DNA from: an uncultured Desulfobacteraceae bacterium
Lineage (GTDB): Bacteria > Desulfobacterota > DSM-4660 > Desulfatiglandales > B25-G16
DNA length: 64,000 bases
Direction of reading: 5' to 3'
NCBI GenBank assembly: GCA_964611035.1
Contig: CAZSWT010000002.1
Coordinates: 7,437-71,436, forward strand
Below, piece by piece: positions 14,745 through 53,730 of the stretch. The stretch's first letter is position 1; each line of letters starts with the position of its first letter. Below the pieces are notes generated by a model that saw nothing but the letters and a program-made list of their open reading frames with translations, was not told the origin of the DNA and did no database searches. The translations under genes and the position numbers were made by a program.

Positions 14745-14865
14745 GTCGTAAAAAATCAAAAAGCATCCATTTTCGTCATTCCCGCGAAAGCGGGAATCCA
14801 GTGATTTCAAGATGATATGGATGCCGGATCAAGTCCGGCATGACGGTTTTGAGACTTTTTGCGAG
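14745..14865. repeat. MITE-like palindromic element (CGTAAAAAGTC family) containing two internal hairpins
   Basis: Arms are GTCGTAAAAAATC (14745) and GACTTTTTGCGAG (ending 14865). Inner hairpins are ATTCCCGCGAAAGCGGGAAT and ATGCCGGATCAAGTCCGGCAT. Confidence 0.6.
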
Positions 14866-16739: not shown

Positions 16740-16863
16740 CTCGTAAAAAGTCATTTTAATCGCTCATGATGCCCATTTTGGGATTCATGAAATGCTTTGC
16801 TCAACATTTTATGAATCTTTTTCCAAAAGTGGCCAAAATCGCTCGCAAAAGACTTTTTAAGAG
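16740..16863. repeat. MITE-like palindromic element (CGTAAAAAGTC family)
   Basis: Arms are CTCGTAAAAAGTC and GACTTTTTAAGAG. The inner palindrome is TTCATGAAATG...CATTTTATGAA. Confidence 0.6.
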
Positions 16864-42395: not shown

Positions 42396-42683
42396 CTGTG
42401 TTCTCCTTTATAATCACTTTAAAATTTTATAGTGTCCGTTGATAGTTGTTAGTTGTCCGTGGGTTCACTTACCTGATTTTTGCTTATTACCAATTGATTT
42501 GATATAAGCACTTAATTTAGGAGTTAGTTCTTCAATCAATTTCTGTAATGAATTTATCTCTGTTTCAGATAACAGTTTTCTTTTATATGCCCTTCTAAGC
42601 CAGTGCTTTACTTCAAAGAGAGATCCCCTTGCAATTTTAGCAAATCTCCGATTATCGGCAAAGCTACCACGTCCTGTCCCTTT

Positions 42684-42938
42684 TTACCCTGTTAAATAAG
42701 ATTTGAGCCTCCTTCTTAAAAACATCTTCCCATGAAATGTTTTCAAATATTTTTCCCTCCTTGTTGCATCTTCTTTATCAAGACACGCCTCATAGTAAAT
42801 CAGCTTGAATGGCCCTTTATCCTTTGTAGATTCAACAAGTTGCTTATTTTGTTGCTCAAATCTTAGCTTGAGGTTCTTGATAAACCCTGTATAAAAATCT
42901 TCATCCTTCATGCTATGCAATACATATGTGTAAAACAC
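42684..42938 (-). CDS. GIY-YIG nuclease-domain protein (84 aa)
   Basis: FYTYVLHS...DFYTGFIKNLKLRFEQQNK...REKYLK follows the GIY-(x10)-YIG pattern with conserved Arg/Glu. GTG start sits behind GAGGTTAGG. Confidence 0.75.
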   Translation of the reverse strand: MFYTYVLHSMKDEDFYTGFIKNLKLRFEQQNKQLVESTKDKGPFKLIYYEACLDKEDATRREKYLKTFHGKMFLRRRLKSYLTG

Positions 42939-42965
42939 ATCCTAACCTCAAGCTATTTAACAGGG
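42687..42965 (-). mobile_element. 279-bp GIY-YIG mini-cassette with perfect 12-bp terminal inverted repeats
   Basis: CCCTGTTAAATA at 42687-42698 and its exact reverse complement TATTTAACAGGG at 42954-42965 bracket the 84-codon GIY-YIG ORF. Confidence 0.6.
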
Positions 42966-43247
42966 CAAGTATTTGCCCCTATACTGTCTGCTGAATTTAC
43001 CAGTTGTTTGCCAATTGTACCCTGAGGAAAACGGTCCCATTTTAAAACTACTCCCCATACAAAATCTGCTATTTCCTCTGCTAATTGATAAACACGAAGA
43101 TTTTCAAACCCTGTCCTCGCCATACCATTGTATCCTATCATATCTCGTTTCTAATTCAGCAACGGACAATTGACAATGATCGACTGACATTGTCTAAAAT
43201 AGACAAATTATAAAAATATCATTTAAAATTTTTTAGTATAGCACATT

Positions 43248-46324: not shown

Positions 46325-46487
46325 CCAATTGTAACTTCTCTATAAGTCCGGGTAATTCCTTGCCAATGCCATTTGCCGTCATTGCGAGGAGCGGAGCGAC
46401 GTGGCAATCTCATTGCTATAATAGAGATTGCTTCGCTTTGCTCGCAATGACAGAACCCGAACTTATTGAGAAGTTACCTCCAATTGG
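46325..46487. repeat. nested palindromes: outer IR enclosing a gene-less GTCATTGCGAG hairpin (46378-46451)
   Basis: Outer arm CCAATTGTAACTTCTCTATAAGTCCGGGT pairs with the reverse complement of ACCCGAACTTATTGAGAAGTTACCTCCAATTGG. Inner element: GTCATTGCGAGGAGCGGAGCGACGTGGCAATCT-loop-AGATTGCTTCGCTTTGCTCGCAATGAC. Confidence 0.7.
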
Positions 46488-51287: not shown

Positions 51288-51665
51288 ATGGAGTTAGATG
51301 CAGGGGAGAAGAAGACTGGAGATAATATAGCAGAACGTTTACTTGATTTTGCCGTAAGAGTTATAAAACTTGTCAATGCGCTACCGAAAACAATTGTTGG
51401 GAGACATATAGCAGGCCAGCTTGTTAGGTCGGGAACATCTTGTGGATCTAATTATGAAGAATCTCGTGGGGCTGAATCCAGGGCAGATTTTATTCACAAA
51501 TTAGGTATTGCTTTAAAAGAGATTAAAGAATCACGTTTTTGGTTGAAAGTCATTTACCATGCTAAAATTATGAAGCCAGAACAAATTGAATCACTCATTG
51601 TAGAATGCGGGGAATTAGCTGCCATAATTGCAAAAAGCATAATTACAGCGAAAGCAAATAAATAA
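51288..51665 (+). CDS. four-helix-bundle protein (23S rRNA IVS protein / Avd family)
   Basis: MELDAGEKKTGDNIAERLLDFAVRVIKLVNALPKT...GQLVRSGTSCGSNYEESRGAESRADFIHKLGIALKEIKESRFWLKVI. Confidence 0.8.
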   Translation: MELDAGEKKTGDNIAERLLDFAVRVIKLVNALPKTIVGRHIAGQLVRSGTSCGSNYEESRGAESRADFIHKLGIALKEIKESRFWLKVIYHAKIMKPEQIESLIVECGELAAIIAKSIITAKANK

Positions 51666-52864: not shown

Positions 52865-52990
52865 GTCATTGGGAGAAGAGATATTCTTATTTAGTCATTG
52901 CGAGGAGCGGGCTTTGGCACTTGGTCATTGCGAGGAGTGGATATTCTCATTTGGTCATTGCGAGGAGGCCAGAGGCCGACGAAGCAATCT
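52865..52990 (+). repeat. tandem array (period 29-30 bp, four units) of the GTCATTG(C/G)GAGGAG left palindrome arm
   Basis: Units start at 52865 (degenerate), 52894, 52924 and 52954. Only the last continues into ...CCGACGAAGCAATCT. Confidence 0.75.
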
Positions 52991-53345
52991 TGGAAGTTCC
53001 GCAATCTTAAAAAAGTATAAATGAAGAGACAGTATTATGTCTATATATTGACCAACAAACATAATACCGTTCTCTACACAGGTATAACAAACGATCTGAA
53101 AAGAAGAGTTTACGAACATAAAGAAAAACTTGTTGATGGGTTTACAAAGAAATACAACATTACAAAATTGGTATACTATGAAGTTTTCGAAGACCCTGAA
53201 AATGCCATATTGAGAGAGAAACAGATAAAGGCTGGTTCAAGGCAAAAGAAAATCGACCTGATTAACAGCATAAATAGAGAATGGATTAATTTGTATGAGA
53301 AAATATGAGATTGCTTCGTCCCGATGAATCGGGACTCGCAATGAC
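52954..53345 (+). mobile_element. GIY-YIG gene carried in the loop of a GTCATTGCGAG...CGAAGCAATCT palindrome
   Basis: The left arm is GTCATTGCGAGGAGGCCAGAGGCCGACGAAGCAATCT (52954-52990). The right arm is AGATTGCTTCGTCCCGATGAATCGGGACTCGCAATGAC (53308-53345) and overlaps the stop codon. Confidence 0.55.
53021..53308 (+). CDS. GIY-YIG nuclease-domain protein (95 aa)
   Basis: YYVYILTNKHNTVLYTGITNDLKRRVYEHK...YYEVFEDPENAILREKQIK. Confidence 0.85.
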   Translation: MKRQYYVYILTNKHNTVLYTGITNDLKRRVYEHKEKLVDGFTKKYNITKLVYYEVFEDPENAILREKQIKAGSRQKKIDLINSINREWINLYEKI

Positions 53346-53356
53346 GAAGTGTCAAT

Positions 53357-53398
53357 GTCATTGCGAGCGAATTTACGAAACGTTTTAATAGCAATGAC
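53357..53398. repeat. short gene-less GTCATTGCGAG...GCAATGAC hairpin
   Basis: GTCATTGCGAGCGAATTTACGAAACGTTTTAATAGCAATGAC. Confidence 0.55.
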
Positions 53399-53430
53399 TT
53401 TTTATTTTTTATCAGGTATACTTGATAAAT

Positions 53431-53568
53431 TCGTAAAAAGTCAAAAATGGGATGGCAAAGTAAAAAGTTCCAAATGCAAGGCTTGCGAATCTTGAGGAAT
53501 GAGGCGTACTTACCAGTACGCGCAATGACAAAAGATGAAGCGTAACGTAGCAGTTGGACTTTTTACGA
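53431..53568. repeat. MITE-like palindromic element (CGTAAAAAGTC family)
   Basis: Arms are TCGTAAAAAGTC (53431) and GACTTTTTACGA (53558-53568). Confidence 0.6.
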
Positions 53569-53590
53569 AGTCGTCATACGTGATTCATTC

Positions 53591-53730
53591 CTAAAAAGTC
53601 ATGAACCGGGGTCATTGCGAGGAGCATAGCGACGAAGCAATCTAATAAATACAATAAGTTATGCTATATGAGATTGCTTCGTCCCGATGAATCGGGACTC
53701 GCAATGACATGCTTTTTGACTTTTTACGAG
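53591..53730. repeat. CTAAAAAGTCA...TGACTTTTTACGAG element enclosing a gene-less GTCATTGCGAG palindrome (53611-53708)
   Basis: Inner element: GTCATTGCGAGGAGCATAGCGACGAAGCAATCT, a 27-nt loop, then AGATTGCTTCGTCCCGATGAATCGGGACTCGCAATGAC. The right arm is identical to that of the GIY-YIG cassette. Confidence 0.7.

Follow-up and report, generated by a model that had tools for sequence, protein, structure and literature searches.

What is the palindromic repeat family that surrounds a small GIY-YIG gene in the genome of an uncultured Desulfobacteraceae bacterium? In a 64,000-nt stretch of contig CAZSWT010000002.1 (hereafter the window), the same terminal sequences, or arms, flank a 95-aa open reading frame (ORF), recur as gene-less hairpins and stand in a tandem array upstream of the gene. 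An earlier reading made without database searches (the sequence-only reading) had taken the family for an autonomous element accompanied by derivatives that resemble miniature inverted-repeat transposable elements (MITEs). Our analysis indicates, with a probability of about 85%, that the locus is an Ssn/SRM system, in which the 95-aa ORF would encode an Ssn nuclease and the arms would be its cognate Ssn-related motifs (SRMs). We assign the locus to this system because the protein is homologous to SsnA, retains its catalytic residues and is accompanied by hairpins that carry the GTC and C determinants of SsnA targets.

The target of SsnA of Neisseria meningitidis (94 aa, CDD cd10448) is the NTS repeat CGTCATTCCCGCGMAVGCGGGAATCYRG, which it binds on one strand only and solely in single-stranded form; its cut falls a few nucleotides upstream of that motif, and it does not bind RNA (Chenal et al., Nat Commun 2025, PMC11893778). 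Cutting depends most on the three nucleotides before the palindrome and binding most on the C after it, and the characterised relatives do not cut double-stranded DNA. Widespread homologues cut SRMs of their own, an SRM being found nearby in 71% of homologues and on both sides in 42%. In N. meningitidis, SsnA has an in vivo effect on transformation, and the authors likened the NTS-ssnA-NTS architecture to insertion sequences and to REP/BIME-transposase systems (PMC11893778). Our literature searches on the repeat sequences and on MITE- or REP-type repeats returned nothing, and it was the combination of dRS3 with GIY-YIG that led to this paper.

The 95-aa ORF consists of a lone GIY-YIG domain (PF01541 over residues 4-77, E=5e-18) with no further domain, and the nearest solved structure is that of the UPF0213 protein BH0048 (PDB 1zg2). 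Using a 94-aa N. gonorrhoeae ORF located among canonical NTS repeats as a stand-in for N. meningitidis NMV_0044 (SsnA), we obtained 46% identity over 92 aa by BLASTP (E=1e-29) and E=2e-19 by tblastn against N. gonorrhoeae, which lies within the E < 1e-10 limit of the published survey. Residues Y8, Y19 and E66 line up with the catalytic Y6, Y17 and E64 of the N. meningitidis enzyme and are invariant in an eight-sequence alignment. The NCBIfam group I intron endonuclease model scored 18.8 bits against a cut-off of 56, no PADLOC defence model matched, and a PHROGs search gave no informative match. More than 8000 database proteins match the ORF, the best 120 at 82-100% identity. When each species was represented by a single genome, a scan yielded 565 relatives; the best 80, at 59-84% identity, span more than 15 phyla: Desulfobacterota, Chloroflexota, Cyanobacteriota, Planctomycetota, Omnitrophota, Patescibacteria, Nitrospirota, Ignavibacteria, Bacteroidota, Alpha- and Gammaproteobacteria, Spirochaetes, Atribacterota and others.

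The sequence-only reading had described the palindrome family in four forms, and we recovered all of them in place. The outer 11-mer GTCATTGCGAG (up to one mismatch) has 11 matches in the window, where 0.56 would be expected; none of 100 shuffles reaches this number, and all 11 matches are confined to two intergenic regions, 46378-46451 and 52865-53708. The inner motif CGAAGCAATCT matches 6 times against 1.24 expected. The SRMs as we assign them lie at three loci only in the 64 kb, with no obvious gene-class pattern. The features are as follows (comparison loci and genomes carry L numbers).

52865-52893, + strand: tandem unit 1, a degenerate, shortened SRM copy (GTCATTGGGAG..TATTCTTAT), with a counterpart in L093
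52894-52923, + strand: tandem unit 2, a degenerate SRM copy with intact 5' half and decayed 3' half, absent in L093
52924-52953, + strand: tandem unit 3, a degenerate SRM copy, TATTCTCAT aligning to GCAATCTCAT of intact arms
52954-52990, + strand: intact left SRM of the ssn unit, GTC-ATTGC-GAG-[GGCC AGA GGCC mini-hairpin]-GACGAA-GCAAT-CT
53021-53308, + strand: putative ssn gene, a 95-aa single-domain GIY-YIG nuclease of the Ssn family by homology to the Neisseria SsnA ORF
53308-53345, - strand: intact right SRM of the ssn unit, with a TCCCGATTCATCGGGA mini-hairpin; L093 has the simple form without it
53357-53398, no strand assigned: degenerate SRM remnant (outer 5' half ... GCAATGAC), a weak hairpin (z = -2.1)
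53611-53643, + strand: left SRM of a gene-less doublet
53671-53708, - strand: right SRM of the same doublet; L005 and L093 have the simple form
46378-46410, + strand: left SRM of a second gene-less doublet
46425-46451, - strand: right SRM of the second doublet, which is missing in four related genomes
14774-14801, + strand: canonical Neisseria-type SRM (CGTCATTCCCGCGAAAGCGGGAATCCAG), the sole window match to the published SRM pattern
14820-14844, - strand: SRM of a third type (GTCATGCCGGACTTGATCCGGCATCC), inverted relative to the canonical SRM at 14774-14801

In the gene-carrying form, the TGA stop of ssn overlaps the right arm, and a near-identical copy of the left SRM precedes an 83%-identical gene in L007/L008. 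The gene-less copies give strong predicted folds on either strand (46378-46451, -41.6 kcal/mol, z = -6.7; 53611-53708, -41.4 kcal/mol, z = -5.4). The shorter hairpin at 53357-53398 also exists, but its fold is weak (-12.2 kcal/mol), and its left half is missing in strain L005. The identity that had been noticed between the right arm of the gene-less copy and that of the cassette extends to 43 nt (53303-53345 and 53666-53708). The four same-strand left arms start at 52865, 52894, 52924 and 52954, with a period of 29, 30 and 30 nt, the first with one mismatch. The inverted pair at 14774-14844 places a Neisseria-type SRM and a third type side by side in a Desulfobacterales-like genome, and no second ssn gene matching this pair was found in the 64 kb.

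To define the arm itself, we dissected elements of related loci, about 100 without and about 45 with the gene, and analysed covariation on 88 distinct elements. The common plan is (T)-GTC-ATTGC-GAG-[variable insert]-GAA-GCAAT-CT, in which the insert ranges from CGAAGC to about 80 nt and often forms a GC-rich mini-hairpin. A single arm is thus self-complementary through ATTGC/GCAAT, with a paired core of 5 bp. Pairing within the arm showed 13 cells with compensatory double changes, such as ATTAC/GTAAT, ACTGC/GCAGT and ATCGC/GCGAT, a number that none of 500 shuffles reached, as against 4 compensatory cells for left-right pairing of the same positions, which 6 of 500 shuffles reached. Given this preference for within-arm hairpins, we rejected simple long stems between left and right arms. 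The covariation fits recognition of a single arm folded on itself. The stem sequences are themselves conserved, beyond structure alone. At position -1, 67% of copies have T and 3% have G, and conservation stops there; a continuation of the palindromes into their flanks, which we also considered, is not general. From this boundary and the within-arm covariation, it follows that the functional unit is probably the single arm, a directional hairpin, and that the "palindromes", judged from their sequences, are two such hairpins in inverted orientation. GTC 5' and C 3' of the palindrome are conserved in the consensus, as in SRMs, and together with the rare G at -1 they agree with the published "HGTC..." motif and its mutagenesis.

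The association between gene and arms that the sequence-only reading drew at this locus holds far beyond it. A motif lies within 300 nt of the gene in all 75 evaluable homologous loci, so that no GIY-YIG gene among them stands apart from it; arms flank the gene on both sides in inverted orientation in 42 of the 75 and on one side in 26. Motifs reach a density of 3.5/kb near the gene, compared with 0.20/kb at greater distance and about 0.02/kb in shuffled sequence, and the outer 11-mer occurs 506 times in the homologous loci, compared with 12-18 times in shuffles. The commonest distance between neighbouring SRMs arranged tail to head is 8-14 nt. We considered tandem duplication by staggered nicks as the cause of these spacers and rejected it because, except in obvious arrays, they do not decompose into outer flanks.

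More distant homologues (39-66% identity), on plasmids as well as chromosomes, are accompanied by different hairpins that co-vary with the protein within a shared GTC-AT...AT-C frame:

Planktothrix, 66% identity: GTCATTCTGAG..AGAATCT
Rhizobium, 54% identity: GTCATCCCAGGG..CCCTGGGATCC
Spirosoma, 50% identity: GTCATCCCGAGG..
Neisseria gonorrhoeae, 46% identity: GTCATTCCCGCG..CGCGGGAATC (the dRS3 core)
Azospirillum, 42% identity: GTCATCCCCGCG.., between sufB and sufC
Novosphingobium, 39% identity: GTCGCCCCGTG..

The Planktothrix agardhii gene is on plasmid p1 (L095, 18847-19131) between an MmeI-type restriction-modification gene and the DISARM gene drmA, and the Azospirillum lipoferum gene, also on a plasmid (L099), is co-oriented with the suf operon that contains it. 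In an uncultured gammaproteobacterial metagenome-assembled genome (L065, 4838-7550), SRM doublets form a satellite-like array of 106-nt units with a 1039-nt higher-order repeat, each of which holds one ssn gene with a degenerate left arm.

Several observations weigh against the identification as an Ssn/SRM system. The published SRM pattern, HGTCWYN(0-2)YYVSBRHN(0-5)WNVSBRGN(0-2)RNCYNB, matches none of the GTCATTGCGAG arms, although control loci from Neisseria, Azospirillum and Rhizobium do match it. Arms of this family pair over a core of 5 bp only, around inserts that can reach about 80 nt, so that their recognition by the window enzyme is a presumption. The same kind of arm is common in viral contigs: in IMG/VR, at least 120 arm-selected stretches (1.05 Mb; L107-L226, e.g. 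L170 4628-4722, L162 and L130) contain 39 doublets and 272 further motifs, and no ssn gene was found in them. Some of these contigs are clearly phage, as shown by an endolysin gene or by a tape-measure gene, behind which two tandem SRMs stand among the tail genes. Since the arms fall outside the published pattern, we regard them as a probable SRM variant beyond it, which can be searched for as TGTCATTGCGAG-N(4-90)-GAAGCAATCT plus its co-varying forms. Their occurrence in gene-free viral DNA implies that arms spread to, or persist in, DNA without ssn, and by analogy the excess of repeats there matches the high repeat-to-gene ratio in Neisseria. A search of Rfam returned nothing relevant, either at gathering thresholds or at E<=10.

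If the window enzyme behaves as SsnA does, it would bind one strand of an arm only, and only while that strand is single-stranded, as during replication, repair, recombination or DNA uptake. Binding would require the C after the palindrome and cutting the GTC before it, and the nick would fall close to the arm but outside it, a few nucleotides away on the 5' side of the motif. The gene between two inverted SRMs would then correspond to the published NTS-ssnA-NTS architecture, the gene-less "hairpins" would be SRM doublets, and the tandem "left arms" would be decayed direct SRM copies. Comparative patterns further suggest dynamics of the REP/RAYT type, in which the nuclease evolves together with its hairpins, there are more hairpins than genes, and SRM copies may be gained, lost, converted and locally amplified. 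The Ssn/SRM system was published in 2025, including the idea of an insertion-sequence-like NTS-ssnA-NTS architecture. What appears to be new here is a widespread SRM variant, which escapes the published search pattern, and its arrangement in doublets, arrays and decayed copies, and what is new by observation is comparative evidence for the gain, loss, conversion and decay of SRM copies.

This comparative evidence comes first from the liv operon, in which the window unit lies. In the orthologous operons of L088 and L091 (LivK 79-87% identical), the livM-livK spacer is 169-228 nt long and contains neither arm nor gene; the L094 contig begins 154 nt upstream of livK, and there is no arm in that stretch. 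L093 (GCA_030615105.1, LivK 85%) does carry the ssn unit, which is 94-96% identical to that of the window, while the flanking genes average about 84%. Its ssn has a premature stop (CAA to TAA), its array has 2 units compared with 4 in the window, and both right arms of L093 lack the TCCCGATGAATCGGGA mini-hairpin. In strain L005, the mini-hairpin is present in the right arm of the gene only. Because the gene-less doublet has a simple right arm in both L005 and L093, the 43-nt identical tract of the window implies gene conversion between these neighbouring arms along the lineage of the window.

Related genomes show insertion polymorphism both for the gene unit and for the doublet at 46378, so that gene-less copies, too, are polymorphic. 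The 46378 doublet is missing in L101, L102, L104 and L106, in which the HD-domain protein is 88-93% identical. However, this doublet is enclosed, off-centre, by a 147-nt MITE (46331-46477) that is likewise absent from those four genomes. This unrelated MITE ends in 23-bp terminal inverted repeats of its own (GTAACTTCTCTATAAGTCCGGGT, 21/23 matching) and is flanked by an 8-bp direct repeat, CTCCAATT. The presence or absence of the doublet is therefore not creditable to the SRM. No target-site duplication was found flanking the SRM units, the CTCCAATT repeat belonging to the enclosing MITE, and no exact or clean empty site was recovered for them among the related genomes compared.

The gene-less copies might be deletion derivatives of the gene-carrying form, though the sign of it is weak. 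Gene-less loops have, at some loci, at most 5-7 nt in common with the ends of the gene and agree with them at 3.3-3.9 of 10 positions, slightly above the 2.7-2.9 of controls (n=16). The tandem arms, in turn, had been thought possible scars of integration or excision. At many loci, among them L025, L036, L013, L037 and L008, the outer motif is repeated on the same strand with a period of 20-31 nt on either side of elements, and in Planktothrix a gene-less doublet has three tandem units to its left and three to its right. By alignment, units 1-3 of the window are shortened SRMs with a decayed 3' half (GCAATCTCAT to TATTCTCAT), in which the core stem can no longer form. The tandem arms thus appear to be decayed SRM copies of a kind that recurs across the family, and not obviously scars.

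The biological role of the system remains that of a selfish mobile unit, of a modulator of single-stranded DNA restriction or recombination kept by the host, or of both, depending on lineage. In the first of these, the arm-gene-arm unit would be an autonomous transposon moved by the GIY-YIG nuclease, with the gene-less doublets mobilised in trans. This account is compatible with the Ssn identity and differs from it only over what the system does. Of the earlier proposal, the link between arms and gene in 75/75 loci and the polymorphism of copies stand, but the arms are self-folding hairpins rather than plain terminal inverted repeats. The liv operons without the unit (L088, L091 and L094) next to L093 with it, the higher identity of the unit than of its flanks, the stop codon in L093, as expected of a dispensable gene, and the position of units inside operons (liv here, sufB/sufC in Azospirillum) all speak for movement. 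So do the wide distribution of proteins of 59-83% identity, the arms in phage contigs, the 8-14-nt spacing of tail-to-head neighbours and the insertion-sequence-like architecture already remarked on by others (PMC11893778). The lack of a target-site duplication or clean empty site for the SRM units, the weak resemblance of gene-less loops to gene ends and the MITE that accounts for the 46378 polymorphism speak against it. Moreover, the two SRMs lie on opposite strands, so that two Ssn cuts cannot free one strand as in IS200/IS605, and GIY-YIG enzymes hydrolyse DNA without rejoining it. We know of no hydrolytic GIY-YIG nuclease that serves as a transposase. Autonomous mobility with MITE-like derivatives is hence plausible but unproven, and we would lean against the transposon as such.

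A related possibility, which we hold only tentatively, is that SRMs and NTS-ssn-NTS units are mobilised by the hydrolytic, single-strand-specific nuclease together with host repair. If so, this would be a route apart from all known transposase classes. The 8-14-nt spacing, about twice the published cut offset, would then be a footprint of nuclease-directed insertion or repair beside SRMs, and the terminal arrays of partial SRMs and the spread of SRMs into phage intergenic regions would be further footprints.

Alternatively, the nuclease may have been domesticated to act on SRM-tagged single-stranded DNA and so limit or shape the recombination of DNA that enters the cell or is being replicated, the repeats being kept by the host. 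The in vivo effect on transformation in N. meningitidis (PMC11893778), the high conservation of the protein and the Planktothrix gene next to MmeI-type and DISARM genes are in line with such a function. The window gene is also probably co-transcribed with a housekeeping operon, because no terminator-like site was found and promoter-like sites (7, compared with 4.4 expected from shuffles) are not above expectation. Patchy presence in close relatives and the L093 pseudogene are less easily reconciled with a host function, as are the absence of any matching PADLOC defence model and the restriction of window SRMs to three loci without an obvious gene-class pattern. We regard it as a possible but doubtful explanation of the locus.

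A homing-type element, in which gene-less hairpins are empty targets that the nuclease cuts and repair through arm homology then copies the gene into their loop, is unlikely, and strongly so. It would explain why gene-carrying and gene-less units with identical arms share one locus and why array units (L043 and L065) differ solely by gene or loop. However, the protein has no DNA-binding domain, its characterised relatives do not cut double-stranded DNA, gene-less copies far outnumber gene copies, and the predicted cuts would lie outside the arms and not within the loop. Least likely of all is a purely RNA-level element, whose arms would be transcript stabilisers, RNase III sites or terminators beside an incidental nuclease gene: strong predicted folds on both strands and the position inside an operon are set against the absence of an Rfam family even at E<=10 and of terminator-like sites, the conservation of stem sequences and not of structure alone, and directional GTC and C flanks that match DNA-level determinants of an enzyme whose counterpart SsnA does not bind RNA.

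With the Ssn/SRM reading preferred, the locus can be set beside known systems. It resembles Neisseria NTS/ssnA in having a GIY-YIG protein that consists of one domain and about 94 aa (46% identical, with shared catalytic residues), a gene flanked by inverted directional hairpins in which GTC precedes and C follows the palindrome, hairpins that outnumber genes, and a hairpin and enzyme that co-vary between lineages. It differs from published SRMs in its 5-bp core (ATTGC/GCAAT) and its insert of 4-80 nt, often with a GC mini-hairpin, outside the search pattern, and in the frequent arrangement of arms as doublets, decayed tandem copies and satellite-like arrays. The hosts differ as well, being mostly anaerobes, Chloroflexota, cyanobacteria and candidate phyla. 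With neisserial dRS3/NIMEs it shares the hairpin frame GTC-ATTCCCGCG...CGCGGGAAT-C, seen beside the Neisseria homologue, while the stem sequence differs.

REP/REPIN-RAYT systems and BIMEs likewise consist of many short hairpin repeats, commonly in inverted doublets, and REP/REPIN-RAYT systems also have one small nuclease-type gene between two inverted repeats and repeat-enzyme co-evolution. RAYTs, however, are HUH tyrosine transposases that act through a covalent intermediate, whereas the window enzyme is a hydrolytic GIY-YIG protein and not an HUH (Y1) transposase. In IS200/IS605 elements, subterminal hairpins are recognised as single-stranded DNA by a Y1 transposase. By analogy, recognition of hairpins as single-stranded DNA and cleavage offset from the hairpin would be shared with the window system, as is the lack of target duplication, but the IS200/IS605 ends are cut on the same strand and the window SRMs are on opposite strands. 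Free-standing GIY-YIG homing endonucleases (I-TevI and the Seg proteins) share the GIY-YIG domain and the intergenic location; unlike them, with their separate DNA-binding domain and double-strand cut, the window protein is a catalytic domain alone.

These data would extend the Ssn/SRM pairing to a very widespread and highly conserved clade (59-83% identity) in more than 15 phyla. As its hairpin lies outside the published pattern, censuses based on that pattern may undercount SRMs. For annotation, the family explains a repeat that, in assembled metagenomes, breaks contigs and gives rise to many small ORFs that are spurious. Presence and absence, the pseudogene, arm conversion, array size and phage copies are data that bear on the mobile-or-domesticated question of the 2025 paper, and each new enzyme-hairpin pair is a candidate tool for cutting single-stranded DNA.

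A second repeat family in the window has the terminal inverted repeats TCGTAAAAAGTC...GACTTTTTACGA (10 matches compared with 0.6 expected), with copies at 14746-14864, 16741-16862, 53431-53568 and 53589-53729. Strains L005 and L093 lack the copy at about 53424-53581 (158 bp). SRM hairpins lie inside two of the copies, and in L007 an arm is followed by the motif of this second family.

The window also holds a second, distant GIY-YIG gene (ORF 42684-42938, - strand, 84 aa), 37% identical to the 95-aa ssn protein, and no SRM-type arms were found at it. In this region (42465-43141, - strand), the gene is flanked by a perfect 12-bp inverted repeat, CCCTGTTAAATA / TATTTAACAGGG, and splits a 23S_rRNA_IVP four-helix-bundle gene, the joined fragments of which match PF05635 over nearly its full length (1-105/106, E=2e-20). 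Another four-helix-bundle gene (TIGR02436 / 23S_rRNA_IVP) is situated at 51288-51665, between livH and livM. Its homologue stands upstream of livH in L088 and there is none in the L091 operon, implying that this gene, too, changes position between genomes.

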